Positions 1,083 to 50,717 of a DNA stretch of 64,000 bases are shown here, in pieces. The notes beneath the pieces were generated by a model. The model had not been told where the DNA came from. It searched no databases and saw nothing but the letters and a program-made list of their open reading frames with translations. How positions within the stretch are numbered: the stretch's first letter is position 1; every line of letters begins with the position of its first letter. The stretch spans positions 106,070 to 170,069 of the forward strand of contig JBBTSO010000005.1 in the NCBI GenBank assembly GCA_038064695.1, read 5' to 3'. The stretch comes from Patescibacteria group bacterium (GTDB lineage: Bacteria > Patescibacteriota > Minisyncoccia > Phycocordibacterales > Phycocordibacteraceae). The translations under genes and the position numbers were made by a program.

Positions 1083-1376
1083 ATGACAACACTAGGAAGC
1101 AGGGAGGGTATTAATGTCCCTACGGCATTGGCAGCAGCTTTTGTTATGTTTGCAGCGGCAGATTTTCTTGCAGAAAGTGCCTATGCAGCAACAATGGCAT
1201 CGTCTGAATTAAGTGATGCTGAGCGACACTCAATTTTTCAAGAGTGGATGAACAATATGAAAGCAAACTGTCGCTTTCCCTTCTGTTTGGCTCCTTCAAC
1301 GCGAATGATTACTGAAGGGTGGGGGGTGTGCGAAGTACACGCGCAAACGTTTGATAAACTTGCCGGTAGAATTTAG
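1083..1376 (+). CDS. small membrane-anchored protein with C-terminal C-x4-C-x14-C-x2-H motif (member 1 of tandem trio)
   Basis: 97 aa with an N-terminal hydrophobic helix (ALAAAFVMFAAADFL). C-terminus NCRFPFCLAPSTRMITEGWGVCEVH. No recognised family. Confidence 0.45.
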   Translation: MTTLGSREGINVPTALAAAFVMFAAADFLAESAYAATMASSELSDAERHSIFQEWMNNMKANCRFPFCLAPSTRMITEGWGVCEVHAQTFDKLAGRI

Positions 1377-1410: not shown

Positions 1411-1656
1411 ATGACCGTTGCCGATGCGACATATTATCCTCGTGAGAGTAGGAATGTTGAAGCAGCTCTCATCGTGTTGAGTGTAGTAACGGCAGTAGTT
1501 GCCGTCGTATGGTACGTGAACGAAACAGGGAGAGGTGACGAGCCGGTGTACCACTGCGCGCGTGAAGAATGCCCCAACGCCGGAGTGTTCTTAAGCAAAG
1601 GACGCCCCTATTGTTTTTTTCACTACCTCTCTTCTCGCGCGGCAAACGATAATTGA
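1411..1656 (+). CDS. small membrane-anchored protein with C-terminal C-x4-C-x13-C-x2-H motif (member 2)
   Basis: 81 aa with TM helix ALIVLSVVTAVVAVVWYV, then YHCAREECPNAGVFLSKGRPYCFFHY. Confidence 0.45.
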   Translation: MTVADATYYPRESRNVEAALIVLSVVTAVVAVVWYVNETGRGDEPVYHCAREECPNAGVFLSKGRPYCFFHYLSSRAANDN

Positions 1657-1687: not shown

Positions 1688-2017
1688 ATGTCTTTATTAC
1701 GCGGTGAGGCAAATGCTCTTACGATGGGACGACATAGAGTCGATAATGGTCCTTTAATCACCGTATTCGGCTCAATAGCAGCTGTAGCTCTTGCTGCATT
1801 GACTGTGTACGCCAAAGGGTCTTTTGACGATCCTGTTGAAGGTATGCGTGATTCAAACTTTAACACCACCACACCCTTCGCTGAGAATAATCAGATAAAA
1901 CCAGAGGACCCGTGTCCAGGTACAGGCATATTCCCTTGCGGTAAACCAACCTACGCTGGTTTGGATTACTGTTTAGAGTGTTATGAAAAAATTGCAGCGG
2001 ATATGAGCGGAGACTAA
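1688..2017 (+). CDS. small membrane-anchored protein with C-terminal C-x7-C-x10-C-x2-C motif (member 3)
   Basis: 109 aa with TM helix ITVFGSIAAVALAALTVYA, then CPGTGIFPCGKPTYAGLDYCLECY. Confidence 0.45.
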   Translation: MSLLRGEANALTMGRHRVDNGPLITVFGSIAAVALAALTVYAKGSFDDPVEGMRDSNFNTTTPFAENNQIKPEDPCPGTGIFPCGKPTYAGLDYCLECYEKIAADMSGD

Positions 2018-2298
2018 ATATGTACTCCTTCAGCCTTCAAGAGTTTTTCCTTTTCCCCTCGTAAACCGTTGTAACCACCAAGACCATTTTTTGCGACTAC
2101 GCGGTGACACGGGACATTGGTGTCGCGATTTGAGCGCATAATAGCTCCTACGGCACGAGCGGCGCGAGGATGCCCCGCGAGAGTAGCTACTTCTCCGTAC
2201 GTGAGTGTTTTCCCTTTTGGAATTTTTTTAACTTCCGCGATAACGCGTTTAGAAAAATCAAAACGATCTTTAATTGAAGAGAGTTTCTGTGTGTGCAT
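2014..2298 (-). CDS. methylated-DNA--protein-cysteine methyltransferase (MGMT/Ogt) DNA-binding/active-site domain protein
   Basis: PCHRVV active-site motif and GHPRAARAVGAIMRSNRD...GGY signature of the Ogt C-terminal domain. There is no N-terminal Ada/Ogt domain. The ORF is open up to 2430 with a Lys/Arg-rich extension, but that would overlap the upstream nuclease by 161 nt, so the internal Met at 2298 was chosen. Confidence 0.7.
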   Translation of the reverse strand: MHTQKLSSIKDRFDFSKRVIAEVKKIPKGKTLTYGEVATLAGHPRAARAVGAIMRSNRDTNVPCHRVVAKNGLGGYNGLRGEKEKLLKAEGVHI

Positions 2299-3127
2299 CT
2301 TTTTTCTTTTTAGTACTGCTAACAACCTTTTTTGACACTGTTTCTTTTTTCTGACTGCCCGCGTGCAATTCTTTAAAGGCTTTACCCGCAGCTTCTCGAT
2401 ACAGACAATGTTCACACGGCTTTCCTCCAAAGGAGGTTCCTACGGGAGGTATGGTATCAGATGAAAGAACTTCCTTCATTTCCATAAGTAATGGTTCAAC
2501 CCACGAGTCATCTCCTGTATATGCAATGAGGTTAATATCAAAGTCTAACTTTGCGTCAAAAGCATTGATTGAATCGTCCTGGCGTGCGTTTGCGTACACA
2601 AAGTATCCAACCGGTGAGACCTTAAACCCATTTTGCTTAAAGAGCCACTGGTACACTTCCATTTGTTTCTTATACGAGTCATAGAGGTGATCTACACTGT
2701 TCGGGCCTTCTGCTTTTGATGTTGCTTTGTAATCAACAATGAGTAACTCCCCATTAGGACGTACCCACACATCGTCAATGCCTCCTCGCACATAAAAACC
2801 AGAGGGAGTGTGGTGAGTCCCGATACCTCTGCGTAGCGCGTCTCGCCACTCGTCCATTCGTTCGTCTTTAAACGGTACCGCTTCAACCCCGTACTGGCGT
2901 AGAATGGGGTGCACGGTCCCCGCTTCACGGTGAATATCAAATTCTCTCTTAAATAGTTCGTCAACCGCGTTGTTGAGCGTGAACGACGGCATAGAGGGAC
3001 GTGACACCCCGAGGCGAAGGTCTAAGTACGAGCAACGCTGACACTCTGAAAACACATCAACCTTCGTTCGGCTGATTTTGAATGGCTCGCTACTTCCCGC
3101 ATCATATACTTTTCTTTTATACGCCAT
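2270..3127 (-). CDS. PD-(D/E)xK nuclease, Cas4/RecB-like (DUF83-type) with putative Cys4 cluster
   Basis: RecB motif II LLIVDYKATSK and Q-motif QMEVYQW. N-terminal CQRC plus C-terminal CEHC give four Cys as in Cas4 Fe-S nucleases. Lys-rich C-terminal tail. No CRISPR array or other cas genes nearby. Confidence 0.7.
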   Translation of the reverse strand: MAYKRKVYDAGSSEPFKISRTKVDVFSECQRCSYLDLRLGVSRPSMPSFTLNNAVDELFKREFDIHREAGTVHPILRQYGVEAVPFKDERMDEWRDALRRGIGTHHTPSGFYVRGGIDDVWVRPNGELLIVDYKATSKAEGPNSVDHLYDSYKKQMEVYQWLFKQNGFKVSPVGYFVYANARQDDSINAFDAKLDFDINLIAYTGDDSWVEPLLMEMKEVLSSDTIPPVGTSFGGKPCEHCLYREAAGKAFKELHAGSQKKETVSKKVVSSTKKKKDAHTETLFN

Positions 3128-3133
3128 AGAGAG

Positions 3134-3961
3134 TTATGCTCCACATAATTGCACACTTTCCTTCACAATGTCTTGGTGTTTTCTGCGAGGAATACCTGCG
3201 CGCACCAAAACCTCAGGGTTTGATGAAATATCTCTACAGAGTGTTACTTGATTTGCCAACAGCTGCGACTCCTCTTTTTTGCTAATAGAGGTCAGAACAG
3301 TAATTGGGTAAAGTCCTGTTTCCTCAACAAGCGTGGCAAGGTTTTGGTCTTGTGGGTAATTCCACCCCATGAGAGTGATGCCGGCACACGTTGCGTATTC
3401 AATGGCATGGCTAGTAAATTTTGTATTGGTTACAAGCCATGCACTACTGGTGGGAGAAGGTACGCCTCGGTCTTTTGCGCCATACTCAATGTCCCAAAAA
3501 CGCGCGCGGACATAGAGCGCGGTTTTGAGATCAGTTTTAAAACCGGGAACGTTGTGAAATTTTAACTCCGCGCCGATGGTTTCATTGCCTTTTCTTAAAA
3601 CGACATCTACTTCGTGCGACGTACACCGTCCAGGAATAATTTGACGAACCTGAGCATCGTACCCACGAGCACGCATTAGTTCGCAGAAGTAATCTTCAAA
3701 AGGAAATCCCGTGGGTCCCATTTCCAAAATGGCGCGACGCATGGAATAGCGAGCTGCGAGTGTTCGTTCTTCTTTTTTTAATTCTAAAAACGCCGAACGG
3801 TAAATTTCACCGGTGGTCATGCCGTCTTTTATTTTTTGTGACACACGTGCAGCGGTGCGTGCCACGACTTCACGAGGTGCCCCAGAGCGCGCGAGTGACG
3901 TTTCCAACTTCTGAACGTCAAACGTCTCACGGGTACCGTCACCTTTTATAATGATGCTCAT
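3134..3961 (-). CDS. ATP-cone domain fused to Mrr-like (type IV restriction endonuclease-fold) PD-(D/E)xK nuclease domain
   Basis: N-terminus IIKGDGTRETFDVQKLETSLARSG...RSAFLEL is an ATP-cone of the kind found in NrdR and RNR. The C-terminal half FEDYFCELMRARGYDAQV...SHEVDVVLRKGNETIGAELKF has the Mrr_cat D...(D/E)xK arrangement. No zinc ribbon, so this is not NrdR. Confidence 0.7.
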   Translation of the reverse strand: MSIIIKGDGTRETFDVQKLETSLARSGAPREVVARTAARVSQKIKDGMTTGEIYRSAFLELKKEERTLAARYSMRRAILEMGPTGFPFEDYFCELMRARGYDAQVRQIIPGRCTSHEVDVVLRKGNETIGAELKFHNVPGFKTDLKTALYVRARFWDIEYGAKDRGVPSPTSSAWLVTNTKFTSHAIEYATCAGITLMGWNYPQDQNLATLVEETGLYPITVLTSISKKEESQLLANQVTLCRDISSNPEVLVRAGIPRRKHQDIVKESVQLCGA

Positions 3962-3975
3962 TCAGACAGTATAAA

Positions 3976-5136
3976 CTAGACCAAAACACCACCTCCCACG
4001 CACTCATCTGTTTCGGGATTATACAAAACGATACTCTGTCCCGGTGCCACTTGTACTGGTTTTTTAAAGCGAAGTTCCGTGCCGTGCACTGAAACAGGAA
4101 TACGTTCTCCGTGGTAACGAATCTGTGCTTCAAGCAAGGAGGACTGCACATCGCTTCTAATCCAATGCATTTCTTTTACATTGCCAACCGCGCTCAAACC
4201 ATATTCTTCAACATAGGGCGAAAGAATTAATTCATTTGCATCAATATTTTTTTTAACGACGTATAATTTCTCGCCAGATCCTAAAGGAAATCGCTCTCCG
4301 AGTGTGTAAAATTGAACGCCATCATGCGTTCCGATCACCTCACCTTCGGTATTTTTTAGGTGTCCTGGCACAACCGGAATGTAGTGCTGGAGAAATTCAC
4401 GCATATCAACATGGCCTAAAAAACAAAGCCCCTGCGAATCGCGCTTTGTTGCGTTTGGAAGCCCTGCCTCATTTGCAATGCGACGCACTTCTGTTTTTGG
4501 TAACTCCCCTACGGGAAACAACGTGTGCGAAAGGTCGTCTTGAGTTAGTGTCCATAAAAAATAACTTTGATCTTTAGCCTCATCCACTCCACGCAATAAT
4601 TTGTAATCTTTGTTCCTCGCATAAGCAGAGCTTGCGTCCAGCGTTCGCTCGGACGTAATGACACTTGCGTTACTACGTCCCTCACTCACTCGGGCGTAAG
4701 CGGAGCTTTCGCTCGGCGTTCGTTCGTACGTATCAGTGCGGACACTGTCACGTACTTCTCTCACTTGAGCGTAGTGTCCCGTGGCAATAAAATCAGCGCC
4801 TTCTTTTTTTGCCTGTTCCCAAAATGCGCCGAATTTTATTTCTCGGTTACACGCAACATCTGGGTTAGGCGTCCGTCCAGAACGATACTCTTCAATAAAA
4901 TAGTCTACGACGCTCTTTTTGTACTCTTCTTCAAAGTCATAAGAAAGAAATGGGATTTCCAAATGCGCCGCGACACGCATTGCGTCCAGTCGATCTTGCC
5001 CTGAGGTACAGGGTAAAAAGTCCGGCTCCCATACCTTTAAAAACACCCCCACGACGCGGTACCCCTGTTTCTTTAAGAGGTACGCTGAAACAGCAGAATC
5101 CACCCCACCGGAGAGGCCTACAAAAACAGTTTTCAT
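3976..5136 (-). CDS. mnmA: tRNA-specific 2-thiouridylase MnmA, carrying an approx. 45-aa in-frame repeat-derived insertion
   Basis: PP-loop VGLSGGVDSAV, ATGHYA, DQSYFL and CFLG motifs. The ORF is open to 5334, but homology starts at MKTVFVGLSGG (ATG 5134-5136). The inserted segment VREVRDSVRTDTYERTPSESSAYARVSEGRSNASVITSERTLDASSAYAR is absent from typical MnmA. Confidence 0.9.
   Translation of the reverse strand: MKTVFVGLSGGVDSAVSAYLLKKQGYRVVGVFLKVWEPDFLPCTSGQDRLDAMRVAAHLEIPFLSYDFEEEYKKSVVDYFIEEYRSGRTPNPDVACNREIKFGAFWEQAKKEGADFIATGHYAQVREVRDSVRTDTYERTPSESSAYARVSEGRSNASVITSERTLDASSAYARNKDYKLLRGVDEAKDQSYFLWTLTQDDLSHTLFPVGELPKTEVRRIANEAGLPNATKRDSQGLCFLGHVDMREFLQHYIPVVPGHLKNTEGEVIGTHDGVQFYTLGERFPLGSGEKLYVVKKNIDANELILSPYVEEYGLSAVGNVKEMHWIRSDVQSSLLEAQIRYHGERIPVSVHGTELRFKKPVQVAPGQSIVLYNPETDECVGGGVLV
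4620..4745. repeat. imperfect tandem approx. 40-nt repeat with CCGAGCGA core inside the mnmA coding region (in frame)
   Basis: Two related units were read directly (gcataagcagagctt...cgttcgctcggacg and gcgtaagcggagctt...tcgctcggcgttcg). They encode the duplicated SSAYAR peptide. The core matches the intergenic repeat at 11.5 kb and the uvrB insertion. Confidence 0.6.
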
Positions 5137-5200
5137 CAGCTCAGTGTAACAAAAAAGCACCGAGGATATATCTCGATGCTTTTTGAACAAAGAAAGAAGG

Positions 5201-5452
5201 TTATCTTCGAAACATTCCTCGAAAGCCTCTTCTAGCTGTATAGAGTCCAAAACCGGCTGCACCACCAAAAAAACCGAGCATACCAGTTTTCTCTGGCCAA
5301 GAAATTGAAGAAAATTGCTGGTAATAAGAATCATTTTCTCCGATTAGATGAAAGAAATCTTTTTCTCCATCCAACGCATCAATGAGGGTAAAAAATTCAT
5401 CTCCCGCAAGAACTGCAAGAGCAGATCCAAAGAGTAAAAGATCAACTTTCAT
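5201..5452 (-). CDS. small secreted/membrane Gly-rich hypothetical protein
   Basis: 83 aa with signal-like N-terminus MKVDLLLFGSALAVLAG. It is only plausible if mnmA starts at 5136; otherwise it overlaps the mnmA extension. Confidence 0.3.
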   Translation of the reverse strand: MKVDLLLFGSALAVLAGDEFFTLIDALDGEKDFFHLIGENDSYYQQFSSISWPEKTGMLGFFGGAAGFGLYTARRGFRGMFRR

Positions 5453-5549
5453 ATAGTGTATTAATTATTTGTATTTGTGACGAGTATGCAGGAAATAAAT
5501 AAAATGTTTTGTTCCCTGCCTTGCATTATATACTATACTATATAATTTG

Positions 5550-6527
5550 TCAATTTTTTAAAAATCGTCTATTTTCCACATGCTCATCAAGAGTGCGCCC
5601 ATAGTGCATTTCCCCGTCAAAACCTGTTAGATAGTAGAAATAGGGTGTTTCCACAGGGTTCACCGCGGCTTTGAGCGACTCAAGCCCTGGGTTGGCAATA
5701 GGCCCTGGAGGGAGTCCCTTATTTTTGTACGTGTTGTATGGCGAGTCGGTAGTAACCAGTTCATCGAACGTTGGGCTAAAGGTATCTATGCCAAAAATGT
5801 ACCCGAACACTGCGTCTACCTGAAGCGGCATACCAATTTTTATGCGCTTCCATAAAATGCCTGAAATAATTTGCCGTGTTTCATACTGACGCGCTTCTTT
5901 TTCTAAAAGAGACGCCATCGTTACCACTTCAGAGAGCGGGACACCGAATGCCACTATATCTTCCTTAAGTACTGTTATTTGTTTTTCAAATTCACTTTCC
6001 ATTGTACTAATGACTGTTTCAGGCAACACGCCATCAGAAAACAAATATGTTTCAGGAAATAGATACCCCTCGTGTTCTTTTGCTTGCGTGATGAATGCCT
6101 GCTCATCAAACGAAAGGAGAGCTTCACTTAGCAGGCGCGCTATATCGCGCACCGTTGAACCTTCAGGAATAGTAACTTTTATTAAGGGAAGTCCAGTTTC
6201 TCCTTTTAGAGTTCGCGTGATGACGTGAAAAACAGAGAGTGGTCGTTCAAAACTATACGCACCGGCACGGATATTATTTTCTCCTCCTACAAGACGTACC
6301 GCATTGGTAAAGAAAAAAGATGAACGGATAACATCTTCTCGCTCAAGAATGGAACCGACTTCACGCACACTTGACCCCCCCGGAATAGTAACAGCCATGT
6401 TTCTAGGAAATGAAAAAGGAGGTATAACGTACAGAATGAAAAAAGTAACCAAACACACTGCCACAACCACTCCGTACGAGTACAGTGGCCTCCCAATAAT
6501 GCGCTGAAAAAGGTCATGAATGATCAT
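5550..6527 (-). CDS. mltG: endolytic murein transglycosylase MltG (YceG family)
   Basis: N-terminal TM helix, YceG-like domain, conserved GLPPGPI motif near the C-terminus, about 325 aa. Confidence 0.85.
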   Translation of the reverse strand: MIIHDLFQRIIGRPLYSYGVVVAVCLVTFFILYVIPPFSFPRNMAVTIPGGSSVREVGSILEREDVIRSSFFFTNAVRLVGGENNIRAGAYSFERPLSVFHVITRTLKGETGLPLIKVTIPEGSTVRDIARLLSEALLSFDEQAFITQAKEHEGYLFPETYLFSDGVLPETVISTMESEFEKQITVLKEDIVAFGVPLSEVVTMASLLEKEARQYETRQIISGILWKRIKIGMPLQVDAVFGYIFGIDTFSPTFDELVTTDSPYNTYKNKGLPPGPIANPGLESLKAAVNPVETPYFYYLTGFDGEMHYGRTLDEHVENRRFLKN

Positions 6528-6536
6528 AGGCAGCCA

Positions 6537-7790
6537 TTACAAGGGAATATTATCAGGTGGTTCTAAGCGCGTGCCGTGCACGCGCGAAAGAGCGCTGGAG
6601 CGCGTTATGTGTGGCAAGTGAAATAACGTAGCAAGTTCAGCAGTGTTCAGTACCGTTACTTTTCCATAGTAAGGCGGGGTGAAGTGCGTGCGGCGGCGAT
6701 AAAGGTTCAATACATATGCTTCATAAAGCCAGGGTATTGCGGCAAAGATATCTGAGAGTGGCCAAGAAATTCGTTCACGTGGATTATAGGCACTGAACCC
6801 ATTTAATTTTGGATCAGAGAATTGGTCAAAGAGCGTGTCCAGTCCCTCTGCGCGTGCCTCATCATACACATCACGGTCTGCCATATAAAGTGCCCTCACG
6901 CCACAGTCAAACGAGGGGCGTTTCAACGCGTCTTCAATTGCCGCAATAATTTCTTGTTCAGTTTTTGGAAGTTGTCGAGGGTCCCCAACGTCACCAATAA
7001 TTTTTCCAATTTCATGTGTGGCATCAGTGTGCAGACTATCAACTTCACGTTGCCAAAAATGTTTTCGCTCCCTCTGGTGGGGGCGAACGATGAAAGAGAT
7101 GTAGAGATGCTGTTTTTCAGGAAGTGAGATAAGTGAATCCAAGAGCGCGTGAAAGGGGCCACTCTGATCCTTTTCTTTCTCATACGATTCATACGTTTTT
7201 AACGGGTAAGGATCTGGTTTTAAAAGTGTAAACTCGCGCGCCGCAAGTTTCATTGAAACAGGGCTGAATGCTACCTCACGCGCGTAGTCGCGTGGCTCAT
7301 CAATATCAACGTCTTTATATTCGCTTCGCAAACGCAGCTCAAACGCCTGACGATGTGCCTTTGGGATGCGTACAAAAAAACGCACGGTACCGCCCGTTGC
7401 AGCAATCTCAAAGCTCCACGGAAGGCGCACTCTTCCGGCAAGTAATTCCTCTGTTCGTGAAATAGATTCACGGTAGTAGAGCGAGTAAAAAACTATCTCC
7501 ATAGGATGGGCAGTTTTGGGGGTGTGTTCACCAGGCTTTAACTCCAACATCACGTACGGAACTGAAGCAACGTATTGTGACCGCACATACGTAAGCCAGA
7601 GTGGAATAAACAGTGCAGTAAGGAGGAGCGGAAGCCACAAAGGCGCCAGCGCCCATAGAAAACCAAAAAAACCTGCGACGACGTTAGGAATGAAATACAC
7701 CCCGAGAGGAATAAGTAAAAGGAGTGAGAGCGCTAAAACGCGCAACAATACGCGAACATCCATGGATAAAATATACCATTTAAAAAACAC
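6537..7790 (-). CDS. hypothetical membrane-anchored protein (2 N-terminal TM helices plus approx. 330-aa soluble domain)
   Basis: 417 aa with no Walker or other recognised motifs. Translationally coupled after mltG (10-nt gap). Confidence 0.5.
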   Translation of the reverse strand: MFFKWYILSMDVRVLLRVLALSLLLLIPLGVYFIPNVVAGFFGFLWALAPLWLPLLLTALFIPLWLTYVRSQYVASVPYVMLELKPGEHTPKTAHPMEIVFYSLYYRESISRTEELLAGRVRLPWSFEIAATGGTVRFFVRIPKAHRQAFELRLRSEYKDVDIDEPRDYAREVAFSPVSMKLAAREFTLLKPDPYPLKTYESYEKEKDQSGPFHALLDSLISLPEKQHLYISFIVRPHQRERKHFWQREVDSLHTDATHEIGKIIGDVGDPRQLPKTEQEIIAAIEDALKRPSFDCGVRALYMADRDVYDEARAEGLDTLFDQFSDPKLNGFSAYNPRERISWPLSDIFAAIPWLYEAYVLNLYRRRTHFTPPYYGKVTVLNTAELATLFHLPHITRSSALSRVHGTRLEPPDNIPL

Positions 7791-7836: not shown

Positions 7837-8865
7837 TTATTTCTTGAGCGCGTACTTACCATCGGCAAGTCGAGAGAACTTTGGATTTTGTAAGTTAACC
7901 AAGATCGTGTTGGTTTTTACAAAACGTTCTTTGAGCACTTTATCAATAATTTGATCTCGAGTCAGCGCTCCGTGTTCACGAAGTACATTTTCAATAATGG
8001 TAGCGACAGGTCCCTCGCGGTATCCCCACTCTTTGAGCGCGTACTGGCCACGTCCAACCAAAACAAAGCGATCACTCTTAATAAGCTCGTTGTGCGTCGT
8101 TGCTTCGTGTGCTTTTTTACCAAACAACTCACGAATTGATTTTGCTACTTCACGGAAGTGCATAGGAGAGCCGTTACGTTTCATAACGAGGTACGCGTAG
8201 TCAGCAATATTCTTTACTTTTATTCCAGGAGCAGACGTACGACCCCACTCATTGAGAGGATTTTTTACCAAACATTGAGACAATTCAAGCCAGCGAAGAA
8301 TGGTGTCACGGTTTCGGTGCTTTGCGTTTACGCGAGAAAGACACCCCATAACGTGAGTGACGAGTGCGTCTTCGGTGAGTACGTCAGAGGGACGAACTTT
8401 CTGGTGAACTTCTTTTAACGCGCTTTCAACTGCTTTTGCGATATCTGAATCTACAAACCAACGCTTGCCGAAGTCTTTATCTTCTTTTGCTTGCTTAAAT
8501 GAGTCACCAACCACCAACATAAAGTAAAGGTGATTCTGCATTTCAAGATCTGGAGCCAACGTGTTTAGAATGGTTTTTTCAGTCAAAATTCCCCCTAAGT
8601 CTCTAATTGAATCTTCGAGTGCTGAAAAAGAACCAGCCTCTTTCACAAATGCATCAGATTCCTGAATGAGTTTAATGGCATGATTTTCAATTTGTCGAAC
8701 GCGCTCACGCGTAATGCCGTACCGTTTCCCAATAGCATCCAACGTCTCAGCCTGTCTGCCCGAGGCAAGGCCGTAGCGCGAAAGAATAACGTCACGAGAA
8801 CGATCAGGAAGATTTTGAACTAAACGCTTCGTAACGACAGCTGGTTTAAAGGTTAGCTTGGACAT
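7837..8865 (-). CDS. sigma-70 region-4-like HTH protein with C-terminal HARE-HTH winged-helix domain
   Basis: N-terminal LSRYGLASGRQAETLDAIGKRYGITRERVRQIENHAIKLI (region-4-type HTH). C-terminal HFREVAKSIRELFGKKAHEATTHNELIKSDRFVLVGRGQYALKEWGY resembles the HARE-HTH of the RNAP delta subunit. Confidence 0.6.
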   Translation of the reverse strand: MSKLTFKPAVVTKRLVQNLPDRSRDVILSRYGLASGRQAETLDAIGKRYGITRERVRQIENHAIKLIQESDAFVKEAGSFSALEDSIRDLGGILTEKTILNTLAPDLEMQNHLYFMLVVGDSFKQAKEDKDFGKRWFVDSDIAKAVESALKEVHQKVRPSDVLTEDALVTHVMGCLSRVNAKHRNRDTILRWLELSQCLVKNPLNEWGRTSAPGIKVKNIADYAYLVMKRNGSPMHFREVAKSIRELFGKKAHEATTHNELIKSDRFVLVGRGQYALKEWGYREGPVATIIENVLREHGALTRDQIIDKVLKERFVKTNTILVNLQNPKFSRLADGKYALKK

Positions 8866-46493: not shown

Positions 46494-47528
46494 TTACCAC
46501 TCCAAATTTCCTCCTGTTTTGTACTCAGTTACACGCGTCTCAAAGAAATTTTTCTTCTTTGAAAGGTCAATTGCTTCCGACATCCACGGAAATGGGTTAG
46601 TAACGCCAAATTGCGCAGGTAACCCCACACGCTCCAGTCGTCGGTCCGCAATGTGTTCAATGTACTGTTTAAATCCATCGGCGTTCAAACCAAAAATTCC
46701 TTTGGGAAATACTTCTTGCGCGTAGGTATACTCTAATACCGTTGCCTTGCGCACCAAGTCAATAATTCGATCTTTAAACTTTTGCGTCCAAAGGTCAGGG
46801 TTTTCTTCTTTGAGTCCGTTAATGATTTCAATACCGAAGTTTAAGTGCATGCTTTCGTCACGCATGATGTACTCAATTTGCTCCGCGCTTCCCGTGAGTT
46901 TGTTTTGGCGTTTGAATCCAAACACCACCGCGAACGATGAGTAGAAGAAAATACCTTCCAAAATAAGCGAAAATACGCACCAGTTTTCCAAAAACTTTTG
47001 ATCTGCTTCAAATGTCCCTGTTTTAAATGCACCGTCAAAAACGCCTTCGTTAAAGCCTAAAATGAATTCTTCTTTGTTGTAAATCGCGTCTACCTCACGG
47101 TACATATTGAAGATTTTTGCTTCATCCATTGCCAAGGACTCCACAATGTACTGATATGCGTGCGTGTGGATTGCCTCTTCATACGCCTGGCGCAAAAGGT
47201 ACATGCGGATTTCAGGCGAGGTCACGTGTTTGTAGAATCCCATCACAATGTTGTTGGCGGCAATAGAATCCGCGGTGGTGAAAAACCCGAGCACCGTTTC
47301 AAACGCACTTCTTTCGTCTGCCGTGAGCGCTGTTTTACTTTTCCACTGCTCAATGTCCAACTGCATTGAAATTTCGGTCGGCAACCAGTGGTTCGCGTTT
47401 GCGTTGTTGTAGTACTCCCACGCAAACTTGTGCTTCATCGGATAGAGCTGAATGACGTCAGCTTCAAGCCCGTTGATGATGCGACGATTGTTTACATTGA
47501 CAGGAGGTGCTTTTTTTATGATTGCCAT
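46494..47528 (-). CDS. nrdB: ribonucleotide reductase class I beta (R2) subunit
   Basis: Diiron ligand pattern (EAIHTHAY, EGIFFYSSF...), radical-Tyr region. 344 aa. Confidence 0.9.
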   Translation of the reverse strand: MAIIKKAPPVNVNNRRIINGLEADVIQLYPMKHKFAWEYYNNANANHWLPTEISMQLDIEQWKSKTALTADERSAFETVLGFFTTADSIAANNIVMGFYKHVTSPEIRMYLLRQAYEEAIHTHAYQYIVESLAMDEAKIFNMYREVDAIYNKEEFILGFNEGVFDGAFKTGTFEADQKFLENWCVFSLILEGIFFYSSFAVVFGFKRQNKLTGSAEQIEYIMRDESMHLNFGIEIINGLKEENPDLWTQKFKDRIIDLVRKATVLEYTYAQEVFPKGIFGLNADGFKQYIEHIADRRLERVGLPAQFGVTNPFPWMSEAIDLSKKKNFFETRVTEYKTGGNLEW

Positions 47529-47564: not shown

Positions 47565-50450
47565 CTACTGACATGATTCGCAGGTCACTTCGGGCGACCG
47601 GTGGAGTTTTATTTCTCTTTTAGGAAGAGGTGCTACTGGTATTGCCGATTGCAAAGGCACTGAGTGACTCTGTGGAGTCACCGGTGCCTCAGTAGGTGCC
47701 ACTGCTACCGGACCCTCAGCGTGAGAGCGTTTGTGCGTTGAACCGAACTCCTGGGTGGAAACGGTAGATTTTTCCACCTGGGTCGCCGCCAATGAACGGA
47801 GGTAGTACGTGGTTTTGAGTCCCAAACGCCACCCGTAGAAATAAATTTCTGAGAGTTCCTTCCCGCTTGAACCATTGAAAAATATGTTCAGAGACTGCGA
47901 CTGATCAATCCACTTTCCACGATACGCCGCCGCGCGCACGAGCCAACGCATATCAACCTCAAACACTTCTTTGTATTTATTTTTGATTGCTTCGGGGATG
48001 CCCGCAATCTGAGCGATAGAGCCGTCGCGATATTTCAATTCGTTCAACATCGCATCATTCCACAAACCAATTTTCTTTAAGTCCCGCACCAAGTATGGAT
48101 TTACCATCGTAAAGTCGCCACTAATGTTTGATTCTACAAAAATGTTTTTGTAAATCGGTTCAATAGCGGGAACTGAGCCCACAATGTTGGAGATAGTCGC
48201 GGTCGGAGCAATTGCCATACAGTTACTATTTCGCATACCGTACTGTTTTATTGCTTCACGCACCACTCCCCAATCCATCGTGGTTTCGCGTGATACTTCA
48301 ATCACTTCGCCGCGCTCTTGTTCAAGAAGCGCAATGGTATCAATCGGCAATAATCCGCGATCCCATTTTGAATCTTTGAACGTCTGGTACGCGCCACGCT
48401 CTTTCGCTAATGAGACCGACGCGAGAATCGCGTAGTAGCTCACCACTTCCATACTCATGTCAGCAAACGCAACGCAGCGCTCTGAAGCAAAATCAATATC
48501 AAGTAAGTAGAGCGCGTCTTGGAAGCCCATAACACCAAGCCCCACGGGGCGGTGCTTCAAGTTAGAGAATTTTGCCTCGTCCGTTGGGTAGAAGTTAATG
48601 TCAATGACGTTGTCCAACATGCGCATTGCTACCATGACTGTTTCTTTTACTCGTTCTTTGTCAAACACACCGTTGACGACGTGGCGCGCAAAGTTTACTG
48701 AGCCCAGGTTACACACCGCGGTTTCTTCTTTAGAAGTGTTGAGGGTGATTTCAGTACAGAGGTTTGAATTGTGCACCACTCCCACGTGATCTTGAGGAGA
48801 ACGAATGTTTGAAGGATCTTTGAACGTAATCCATGGGTGACCTGTTTCAAACAACATACCGAGCATCTTCTTCCACAATTCTTGCGCGGGAATTTTCTTC
48901 GCCAATTTAATTTTTCCTTCGTCAGCCATTTTCTCGTACCGTTCGTACGCCTCTTCAAAACGCTTACCGTAGAGGTGGTGGAGGTCAGGTACTTCGTCAG
49001 GTGAAAAGAGTGTCCACTCCCTGCCATCACGAACCCGCTTCATAAACAAGTCAGGAATCCAATGCGCGGTATTGATGTCGTGAGTACGTCGTCGCTCGTC
49101 TCCGGTGTTCTTACGGAGCTCCAAAAAGTCAATAATATCAGCGTGCCAGGTTTCCAAATAGACCGCTGTTGCGCCACGGCGTCGGCCTGAGCGGTTTATA
49201 GCGACTGTTACGTCGTTTGCAATTTTTAAGAATGGAATAACACCCTGTGAACCAAATCCTGCCTTTTTAATAAGGGCTCCCGTTGCGCGAATGTTTGTCC
49301 AGTCAGTACCGATACCCCCTGCCCATTTAGAAAGCTGCGCGTTGTCTCCGTAGACTTTAAAGATGTGCTCCAGATCATCTTCCACGGTGTTGAGGTAACA
49401 ACTTGAAAGCTGCGAGTGAGGCGTACCCGCGTGAAAGAGTGTTGGCGTTGAGGGAGTGAAGTAGAGACTGCTCATTACCTGGTAGAACTGTTTCGCGTAC
49501 TTTTCTTTCTCGGCTTCTTCTTTAGCGAGCCCCATGGCAACGCGCATAAATAGAAACTGTGGTGTTTCCAAAAAGCGTTTATCTTTTCCTTTTACAAAGT
49601 AACGGTCAGCGAGTGTTTGCACACCGAGGTAGCGCAAAAGTCGGTCGCGCGATGGTGTCAGTTCACGTGCAAGCTCATCGAGGTTGTATGAGAGGAGCGA
49701 TTCGTCGTACCGTTTCTCCACGACACCTTCTTTAATATTCTCAACGAACGCGGCACGGTACGTGCTGAGGAACGCATCGTCTGAAATGTTGTTAGGAATA
49801 GTGGTAACGTTTGTGGTTTCTTCGTACAAGTCACGAAGTAACAAACGCGCAGCGAGTGCGTCGTACACAGGATCGCGTTCAATCATAGAACGCACGACTG
49901 AGATTAAGAGGCGCGAAATTTCTTTCGTCGTAATACCGTCGTACACTTCTCGTTTGAGTTGGTCCATCACCGTATCTAAATTCACGTCGCGCGACTCTTC
50001 CTCACTTAACATCTCACGCATCATTTTTAAAATTCGTGCGGGAGAAAAAATGTCAGGAGCGCCGTCATCCTTCTCAATCAAGAGCGCGTTCGCGTCAATT
50101 TTTTCTTCAACAATTTTTTTCTCCTGTTCGCGAATTTTTGCGTGCTCGTATCGATAGATAATGTAACTCTTCGCGACATCAAAATACCCGCGCTCCATCA
50201 ATCCTCGTTCAACGTTGTCTTGAATTTCCTCTACTGAGGGAATTTGTGCGGTTCCTGAGTAGCGAACGCGAATTTTTTCACCTACCCCTGCGGCGATTGC
50301 TTGCGCTTCATCGGTGTGTGGCGTCTTTAACACATCCAAAAACGCTTTTTGAATAGCGAGAGAAATTTTTTCTTGATTGAAGTCAGCAATACTGCCGTTT
50401 CGTTTTTTTATTTTCTGAGTTACCGACATGGGGTTTGTATTTCGCGTCAC
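47565..50450 (-). CDS. nrdA: ribonucleotide reductase class I alpha (R1) subunit with N-terminal ATP-cone
   Basis: ATP-cone KRNGSIADFNQEKISLAIQKAF, active-site NLCTEI, C-terminal CESCQ thiol pair. 961 aa. Confidence 0.95.
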   Translation of the reverse strand: MTRNTNPMSVTQKIKKRNGSIADFNQEKISLAIQKAFLDVLKTPHTDEAQAIAAGVGEKIRVRYSGTAQIPSVEEIQDNVERGLMERGYFDVAKSYIIYRYEHAKIREQEKKIVEEKIDANALLIEKDDGAPDIFSPARILKMMREMLSEEESRDVNLDTVMDQLKREVYDGITTKEISRLLISVVRSMIERDPVYDALAARLLLRDLYEETTNVTTIPNNISDDAFLSTYRAAFVENIKEGVVEKRYDESLLSYNLDELARELTPSRDRLLRYLGVQTLADRYFVKGKDKRFLETPQFLFMRVAMGLAKEEAEKEKYAKQFYQVMSSLYFTPSTPTLFHAGTPHSQLSSCYLNTVEDDLEHIFKVYGDNAQLSKWAGGIGTDWTNIRATGALIKKAGFGSQGVIPFLKIANDVTVAINRSGRRRGATAVYLETWHADIIDFLELRKNTGDERRRTHDINTAHWIPDLFMKRVRDGREWTLFSPDEVPDLHHLYGKRFEEAYERYEKMADEGKIKLAKKIPAQELWKKMLGMLFETGHPWITFKDPSNIRSPQDHVGVVHNSNLCTEITLNTSKEETAVCNLGSVNFARHVVNGVFDKERVKETVMVAMRMLDNVIDINFYPTDEAKFSNLKHRPVGLGVMGFQDALYLLDIDFASERCVAFADMSMEVVSYYAILASVSLAKERGAYQTFKDSKWDRGLLPIDTIALLEQERGEVIEVSRETTMDWGVVREAIKQYGMRNSNCMAIAPTATISNIVGSVPAIEPIYKNIFVESNISGDFTMVNPYLVRDLKKIGLWNDAMLNELKYRDGSIAQIAGIPEAIKNKYKEVFEVDMRWLVRAAAYRGKWIDQSQSLNIFFNGSSGKELSEIYFYGWRLGLKTTYYLRSLAATQVEKSTVSTQEFGSTHKRSHAEGPVAVAPTEAPVTPQSHSVPLQSAIPVAPLPKREIKLHRSPEVTCESCQ

Positions 50451-50587
50451 CTGAATGACATTACTGCGTTATTAATATGTGCGCATCATAGAACAGTGAT
50501 GAAAACGAATGTTGTCAAGAGTGTCGTTTTCGTCGTTACTGTTGGTCCAACTTCTTGGAAGTCCATTCTACATCATTGAGAGATTTC

Positions 50588-50602
50588 GCGCGTGTCACGC
50601 GC
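50588..50602. promoter_or_regulatory. perfect GC-rich palindrome GCGCGTG-T-CACGCGC about 140 nt upstream of nrdA
   Basis: Read directly. Candidate operator; not an obvious NrdR box. Confidence 0.3.
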
Positions 50603-50667
50603 TCACTCGACACCTGTGGATTAGAGTCACAACGGAATAAAAAATGAGTGTGTCAAACGAGGCACGA

Positions 50668-50693
50668 AAATGGCGCGTATGTACGCGCCATTT
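50668..50693 (-). terminator. perfect 12-bp-arm palindrome AAATGGCGCGTA-tg-TACGCGCCATTT just downstream of the aldolase gene
   Basis: Read directly. On the minus strand it is followed by TTTTCG. Confidence 0.45.
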
Positions 50694-50717
50694 CAGGAAC
50701 TTTTTTATGGTCACTTT

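Follow-up and report, generated by a model that had tools for sequence, protein, structure and literature searches.

ATP-cones are known from experiment, to our knowledge, almost only as regulators of ribonucleotide reduction, in subunits of ribonucleotide reductase (RNR) and in NrdR. Adenine nucleotides bound to the cones of RNR and NrdR set the oligomeric state of these proteins. Here, we describe a gene that joins an ATP-cone to a nuclease. It lies at positions 3134..3961 on the reverse strand of a 64-kb stretch of a Patescibacteria contig (JBBTSO010000005.1; the whole stretch is called the window below), and we refer to its product as the ATP-cone nuclease. An identical protein is held at NCBI under the name 'ATP cone domain-containing protein', from the Patescibacteria metagenome-assembled genome GCA_964357335.1, and other members of the family go by the names 'restriction endonuclease' or 'ATPase'. 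Full-text searching of the literature found no paper on an ATP-cone-nuclease architecture. On balance, we think the protein is probably an adenine-nucleotide-gated endonuclease that acts together with an adjacent exonuclease in nucleic-acid turnover, salvage or repair.

The cones of RNRs (NrdA, Leeuwenhoekiella NrdB and NrdD) regulate a reductase, whereas the cone described here is divergent and is fused to a nuclease. NrdR carries an N-terminal zinc ribbon with two CxxC pairs and is associated with nrd genes; the ATP-cone nuclease lacks the ribbon, has a nuclease as its output domain and was never found near nrd genes. AF1548 from Archaeoglobus fulgidus (PDB ID: 1Y88), a structural-genomics protein, shares the nuclease and C-terminal domains but has no ATP-cone, the alignment beginning at residue 24 of its 199-residue chain. 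The only literature on AF1548 that we found is the 2007 Global Ocean Sampling paper, which predicts it to be a restriction endonuclease (PMC1821046), and AF1548 provides a fold and that prediction rather than a function. Can2/Card1, NucC and Cap4 are ligand-gated PD-(D/E)xK defense nucleases that are similar only in outline: they use a CARF/SAVED-type sensor for a dedicated second messenger and are co-encoded with a signal synthase, whereas the ATP-cone would by analogy read primary metabolites, and the gene has a housekeeping context with no such synthase nearby. Mrr and the type IV restriction enzymes have the Mrr_cat domain in common with the ATP-cone nuclease, but their reader of modified DNA is absent from it, and they occupy variable or mobile regions whereas it is vertically inherited and lies outside such regions.

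An ATP-cone fused to an AF1548-like nuclease domain

An earlier, sequence-only reading of this locus had proposed an N-terminal ATP-cone followed directly by an Mrr-type nuclease domain. The cone was confirmed: residues 3 to 77 match the Pfam ATP-cone family (PF03477) with an E value of 1.8e-8 and 35.2 bits against a gathering score of 25.8, and the modeled domain has the N-terminal β-hairpin capping a four-helix bundle that defines the cone fold. Residues 85 to 198 match Mrr_cat (E 3.2e-5), a marginal pass at 24.5 bits against a gathering score of 21, and thus both Pfam families that the reading had named are found above threshold. Residues 218 to 269 fall slightly short of the Pfam family AF1548-like_C (22.8 against 23.9 bits). 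A sequence search of the PDB gave one strong match, AF1548, over residues 92 to 274 (E 2.2e-33), and this alignment also spans the sub-threshold C-terminal stretch.

The true family of the protein is AF1548-like. The label 'Mrr/type IV' is only loosely right: it holds for the Mrr_cat match and not for the Mrr_N reader domain (a winged helix or equivalent), which is absent, the N terminus being the ATP-cone. Since there is neither a reader domain nor the mobile or patchy distribution expected of type IV restriction enzymes, the ATP-cone nuclease is unlikely to function as one of them. The fusion is direct, as the sequence-only reading had it. The hairpin of the cone (MSIIIKGDG) stands at the very start of the protein, residues 1 to 92 contain no cysteine, and the ATG start codon lies 14 nt past the stop codon of mnmA, which leaves no room upstream for a zinc ribbon. 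In sum, the gene product is an ATP-cone that runs, with no zinc ribbon, straight into a PD-(D/E)xK nuclease whose active site is intact and conserved.

Conservation of the active site, the cone and the junction

Conservation was assessed in alignments of 28 Patescibacteria homologs and then of 79 species from Patescibacteria, Bacteroidota, Chlorobiota and other groups; the values below refer to the 79 species. E89, D119, E132 and K134 are each at least 95% conserved, as is a TNT motif at residues 178 to 180. In the structural model, helix 88-98 carries E89, strand 115-124 carries D119 and strand 127-134 carries both E132 and K134, which reproduces the residue pattern of the PD-(D/E)xK superfamily on its core fold. 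The D...ExK motif pointed out in the sequence-only reading therefore belongs to a recognizable nuclease fold and persists across homologs. Its D-x12-E-x-K spacing is the same as that of D38, E51 and K53 in AF1548, which were predicted to be catalytic by Yooseph et al. 2007 (PMC1821046). The conservation of the four residues and of the TNT motif argues for an active enzyme and not a relic.

Within the cone, conservation reaches at least 95% for K6, G9, F14, K18, I53, Y54 and Y72, and T50 and A69 are also among the conserved positions. E12 and R71 are mostly conserved. Going by alignment, such positions may correspond to the nucleotide contacts of solved cones (hairpin K/G, E-x-F, the K of helix 1 and aromatic or basic residues of the last helix), although the hairpin motif reads KGDG and not KRDG. 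No part of the protein is better conserved than the junction between cone and nuclease, L/M-G-P-T-G-F/Y-P-F-E at residues 81 to 89, and the region around it (residues 71 to 90) has the lowest model confidence, with a predicted local distance difference test score (pLDDT) of 65 to 67. Because this stretch combines top conservation with low model confidence and ends in the catalytic E89, we infer that it couples the sensor to the active site or serves as a hinge between them.

Four cysteines (C113, C192, C242 and C273) are invariant in the 28 Patescibacteria homologs. Across the 79 species, C113 and C192 are at least 95% conserved, C242 at least 80% and C273 less than 80%; C113, C192 and C242 are also present in AF1548. 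These cysteines could make up a metal site or a disulfide.

Relationship to NrdR and the nrd genes

The sequence-only reading had set NrdR aside on account of the missing zinc ribbon and the nuclease domain. The NrdR equivalog model TIGR00244 agrees, scoring the protein at 14 bits against a cut-off of 124.65. Gene context was examined in 80 loci from a genome scan and in the window's own contig by open reading frame (ORF) calling, BLASTP clustering and annotation of recurrent clusters. The ATP-cone nuclease was recovered in 78 of these loci, from 29 Patescibacteria species and 49 species of other phyla. A BLAST search of the neighbors with NrdA and NrdB of the window placed no RNR gene within 6 kb in any of the 78 loci, and the window's own nrdAB genes, put at about 40 kb by the earlier reading, lie about 43 kb away, with no palindrome resembling an NrdR box ahead of nrdA. 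For these reasons, the gene is not a regulator encoded with an nrd operon. Two candidate identities were accordingly rejected: NrdR itself, for which zinc ribbon, TIGR00244 and nrd linkage all fail, and an nrd-operon regulator, for which no locus shows linkage.

A further possibility is a nucleotide-sensing analog of NrdR, in which the nuclease fold and the C-terminal helix-hairpin-helix (HhH) domain would only bind DNA and the cone would control binding or transcription. Some DNA-binding modules are restriction-endonuclease folds put to a new use, and no NrdR-box-like palindrome was found in the 270-nt region upstream of nrdA in the window (50451..50717; pattern search with up to three mismatches), so another regulator could exist. 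However, conservation of four catalytic residues at this level is unexpected for a domain that only binds, the protein has no zinc ribbon or helix-turn-helix domain, its TIGR00244 score is far under the cut-off, and no homolog lies within 6 kb of nrd genes. We regard such a regulator as highly improbable.

Size and phyletic spread of the family

A word-indexed protein search returned 2,148 homologs. Among the best 120 of these, almost all are 271 to 290 aa long and 55 to 74% identical to the query, and PF03477 is precomputed on record for nearly all of them. A HMMER scan with the nuclease part alone (residues 85 to 275) gave 864 clusters at 50% identity, 225 of them at an E value of 1e-30 or below. 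In about 135 of the 150 best cluster representatives, the match starts near residue 85 to 95 of a protein of about 280 aa, which leaves an N-terminal cone extension of about 85 aa; to judge from these extensions, the cone belongs to the basic architecture of the family. A cone-less bacterial subfamily was considered and rejected. Most short representatives are 5'-truncated ORFs that start inside the tail of the cone, and a large subfamily of this kind is therefore not established. Longer members (311 to 403 aa) have no extra domains; their added length comes from low-complexity insertions in the variable loop that follows helix 145-165.

When each GTDB species was represented by a single genome, a scan confirmed the gene in at least 590 species genomes. 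The loci kept include Kaiser-, Pacei-, Wolfe-, Taylor-, Zambryski- and Campbellbacteria among the Patescibacteria, the cultivated Bacteroidota Salegentibacter, Bizionia, Aequorivita, Psychroflexus, Mesonia and Fulvivirga, and also Chlorobiota, Kapaibacteriota and Halalkalibaculum. A search of plasmids added Pontibacter and the chlamydia Criblamydia. Aequorivita antarctica SW49 carries two paralogous copies within about 6 kb, one with the usual neighbors (universal stress protein and beta-CASP genes) and the other in a different context.

A fixed chromosomal position in Patescibacteria

In the Patescibacteria, the gene order is leuS, a sigma-70-like gene, DUF8128, yceG, mnmA, the ATP-cone nuclease, a Cas4-like PDDEXK_1 gene, UDG4 and/or an MGMT-type gene and, farther on, alaS. 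Upstream, mnmA is present in 26 of the 29 species and yceG in 23; downstream, the Cas4-like gene occurs within three genes in 17 species and the UDG4/MGMT-type genes in 15. The flanking genes are co-directional, with gaps mostly below 20 nt. In the window, the gap is 14 nt to mnmA and 6 nt to PDDEXK_1, and a UDG gene is found among the flanking genes together with the Cas4-like and MGMT-type genes, in keeping with the nuclease/repair surroundings noted in the sequence-only reading. The mean pairwise identity of the ATP-cone nuclease among Patescibacteria is 47%, compared with 49% for leuS, 53% for mnmA and 44% for yceG, and its pairwise identities correlate with those of its neighbors (Pearson r 0.42-0.75). 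Because its divergence both matches and correlates with that of housekeeping neighbors, we take the gene to be vertically inherited.

These observations bear on the proposal, also made in the sequence-only reading, that the protein is a stand-alone anti-phage or abortive-infection effector, in which the cone would sense a phage-altered pool of (deoxy)nucleoside triphosphates ((d)NTPs) and release a non-specific DNase. Phages perturb dNTP pools, and the assignment of the domain to Mrr_cat by Pfam would suit such a role. However, no PADLOC model and no PHROG family matched the protein. The gene was found in none of 50,697 phage genomes (tblastn), was not found in IMG/VR (pattern scan with tblastn confirmation) and occurs on only two of 72,556 plasmids, where both copies sit inside the metabolic module described below. 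No recognizable defense gene is among the recurrent neighbors in the 78 loci; the conserved neighbors include no methyltransferase, signal synthase or toxin-antitoxin system, and the window has no CRISPR-like repeats and hence no array. The fixed position in the core genome, amid housekeeping genes in 26 of the 29 Patescibacteria species, and the neighbor-correlated divergence also speak against this proposal. Its backing is a generic resemblance to sensor-nuclease fusions; it is not supported, and we consider it improbable.

Gene context in other phyla

Outside the Patescibacteria, the neighbors are different ones. A beta-CASP/RMMBL metallo-hydrolase lies downstream in 27 of the 49 loci and tandem universal stress protein (Usp) genes lie upstream in 23, while in about 9 to 10 loci the gene is followed by a protein of the thymidine/AMP-phosphorylase family and a ribose-phosphate diphosphokinase. 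The phosphorylase belongs to the archaeal-type thymidine phosphorylase (TP)/AMP-phosphorylase subfamily (TIGR02645, above cut-off). Genes for Hsp20, response-regulator/Crp proteins, PAS histidine kinases and lactate dehydrogenase, assigned by eye, are often nearby, and in the remaining loci the ATP-cone nuclease stands beside cyclomaltodextrinase, transporters and dehydrogenases.

A run of four genes (ATP-cone nuclease, metallo-beta-lactamase (MBL)/beta-CASP, thymidine-phosphorylase family and ribose-phosphate pyrophosphokinase (phosphoribosyl pyrophosphate (PRPP) synthetase)) is found on a Pontibacter plasmid (NZ_CP021236; locus L084, 1972..6597) and on a plasmid of Criblamydia (NZ_LK031773; locus L085, 7995..12602), from an unrelated phylum. 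The Criblamydia run lies between glgP/phosphoketolase and acetate kinase/glucoamylase genes. In Kapaibacteriota, the genes after the ATP-cone nuclease are again this phosphorylase and the PRPP synthetase. The last three genes of the run match an MBL, PRPP-synthetase and TP trio (bll3115-3117) that Bradyrhizobium diazoefficiens induces under microoxia (PMC6515984). Homologs of the Bacteroidota partners (beta-CASP, Usp, TP family and PRPP synthetase) were not found in the 64-kb window, which by itself therefore gives no demonstration of the catabolic module in this genome.

In Halalkalibaculum sp. DA3122, an ATP-cone is fused to a putative glucoamylase (PF10091) two genes downstream of the ATP-cone nuclease (locus L034, 7184..8713), and this locus thus contains a second pairing of an ATP-cone with a degradative enzyme.

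The neighbors in the window (Cas4-like, MGMT and UDG) favor a role in repair, and those in other phyla favor starvation- or hypoxia-linked catabolism and salvage. As a DNA-repair endonuclease, the protein would nick or cleave damaged or branched DNA in the manner of NucS/EndoMS, Hjc or XPF-type enzymes, with the cone holding cleavage back unless ATP or dATP is at hand for resynthesis; its gene would then form one repair operon with the adjacent genes for the Cas4-like exonuclease, UDG and MGMT. A nuclease domain followed by an HhH-type domain, as here, is a layout that resembles structure-specific repair nucleases, and the gene stands directly before the Cas4-like and UDG4/MGMT-type genes in the window and in 15 to 17 of the 29 Patescibacteria loci. 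However, this adjacency may be frozen synteny, and the Usp, RNA-type beta-CASP, nucleoside/AMP phosphorylase, PRPP synthetase and glycogen-degrading enzymes that adjoin the gene in other phyla are not repair proteins. We therefore regard a dedicated repair enzyme as rather unlikely.

It is possible, and we suggest this only tentatively, that the ATP-cone nuclease acts as the regulated first enzyme of a conserved pathway for nucleic-acid catabolism and salvage, set free by its cone in response to a falling adenylate or dATP pool. Its fragments would be trimmed to mononucleotides by the exonuclease encoded beside it (beta-CASP or Cas4-like), and the archaeal-type AMP/nucleoside phosphorylase and the PRPP-synthetase-like enzyme would return ribose and bases to energy and nucleotide metabolism. 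Such a pathway would be a bacterial counterpart, switched by an ATP-cone, of the nucleoside/AMP pathway of archaea and the candidate phyla radiation. It would be deployed in dormancy or microoxia regulons with Usp, Hsp20, glycogen-degrading enzymes and, in one lineage, the ATP-cone-glucoamylase fusion. Patescibacteria are not known to make nucleotides de novo, and there the enzyme might meter the digestion of imported or own DNA.

Features of the window

The coordinates of the gene, its domains and its neighbors are collected in Table 1. The candidate promoter sits directly past the stop codon of yceG, and the arrangement suggests, from sequence, that orf83, mnmA, the ATP-cone nuclease, PDDEXK_1 and the MGMT-type gene form a five-gene operon.

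Table 1. Positions in the 64-kb window of the ATP-cone nuclease gene, its parts, neighboring genes and nrdAB
Feature	Position	Strand	Remarks
ATP-cone nuclease, whole gene	3134..3961	-	275 aa; ATP-cone, PD-(D/E)xK nuclease and HhH-like tail
ATP-cone domain	3722..3961	-	aa 1-80; β-hairpin 3-13 and four helices
Junction motif (M/L-GPTGFPFE)	3695..3721	-	aa 81-89, ends in catalytic E89; invariant in 26-79 species
PD-(D/E)xK (restriction-endonuclease-fold) domain	3347..3709	-	aa 85-205; α-β-β-β-α-β core
Catalytic motif D119-x12-E132-x-K134	3560..3607	-	HEVDVV...GAELKFHN
AF1548-like C-terminal helical domain	3137..3310	-	aa 218-275; HhH/SAM-like, presumed nucleic-acid backbone binder
PDDEXK_1/Cas4-like nuclease	2270..3127	-	Downstream of the ATP-cone nuclease; CxxC...CxxC cysteines, one pair toward either end
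Short MGMT-type protein	2014..2298	-	DNA_binding_1, PCHR motif; ends the co-directional run
mnmA	3976..5160	-	tRNA 2-thiouridylase; upstream of the ATP-cone nuclease
orf83	5201..5452		83-aa ORF; upstream of mnmA
Candidate promoter	5525..5553	-	Perfect sigma-70 consensus TTGACA-17-TATAAT (12/12); pattern match only
nrdB	46494..47528		
nrdA	47565..50450	-	Class I; two ATP-cone stretches

The Cas4-like gene stands alone, with no CRISPR array and no other cas gene in the window, and its mean pairwise identity in Patescibacteria (60%) is above that of leuS and mnmA. Two members of the syntenic Patescibacteria block are uncharacterized, a DUF8128 protein (6537..7790, reverse strand) and a protein with a Sigma70_r4 match and a faint HARE-HTH match (7837..8865, reverse strand). 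Three small ORFs of 97, 81 and 109 aa are arranged in tandem on the forward strand (1083..1376, 1411..1656 and 1688..2017). They have a hydrophobic N-terminal half and a Cys/His-rich C-terminal tail (e.g., C..C...C..H), with no Pfam family on record, and their sequences look like those of paralogous, membrane-anchored zinc-ribbon-like proteins.

Proposed mechanism

The ATP-cone nuclease looks like a housekeeping enzyme that serves neither anti-phage defense nor nrd regulation, and its domains make a nuclease gated by the nucleotide pool a reasonable mechanism. We propose that it is a cytoplasmic, chromosomally conserved endonuclease whose AF1548-type PD-(D/E)xK domain would cut nucleic acid, DNA or RNA, while the HhH-like C-terminal domain would hold the substrate backbone. 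The cone would bind adenine nucleotides (ATP, dATP and possibly ADP or AMP). If it behaves like the cones of RNR and NrdR, nucleotide binding would alter how the protein oligomerizes, and this would decide between a cleavage-competent dimer and a sequestered active site. A second, more direct route is conceivable, in which the cone repositions the catalytic E89, located about 10 residues past the last cone helix. Through either route, cleavage would be turned on or off according to the nucleotide or energy pool. The endonuclease would work with the neighboring exonuclease, Cas4-like in Patescibacteria and beta-CASP in Bacteroidota and Chlamydiota; a nuclease of an exonuclease-type family lies immediately downstream in both of these very different gene orders.

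Several points weigh against a nucleotide-gated endonuclease with an exonuclease partner. The cone is divergent by its sequence (35 bits, and KGDG where many cones have KRDG), and a phmmer search with the single protein sequence found no solved cone. The whole leuS...alaS block is syntenic in the streamlined Patescibacteria genomes, and the adjacency of the Cas4-like gene may reflect frozen gene order and not a functional link. Contexts differ by phylum, and the role beside the repair-type neighbors seen here may differ from that in the catabolic and stress contexts of Bacteroidota. The substrate is indicated in two directions, the RMMBL domain of the beta-CASP partner pointing to RNA and the HhH tail and repair neighbors to DNA. 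Lastly, nucleotide binding and cleavage are both predicted activities for all members of the family, AF1548 included.

Significance

In this family, an ATP-cone sensor is wired to an intact nuclease. The family is large and uncharacterized, and it has members in cultivable Flavobacteriia, in Pontibacter and in a chlamydia. Its housekeeping setting cautions that not every fusion of a sensor to a nuclease amounts to immunity. If the cone gates cleavage, ATP-cone allostery would extend to the degradation of nucleic acids, and the nucleotide or energy pool would have a direct molecular link to DNA or RNA turnover. Such a link would matter for the salvage-dependent Patescibacteria and for the starvation and hypoxia survival modules of other phyla.

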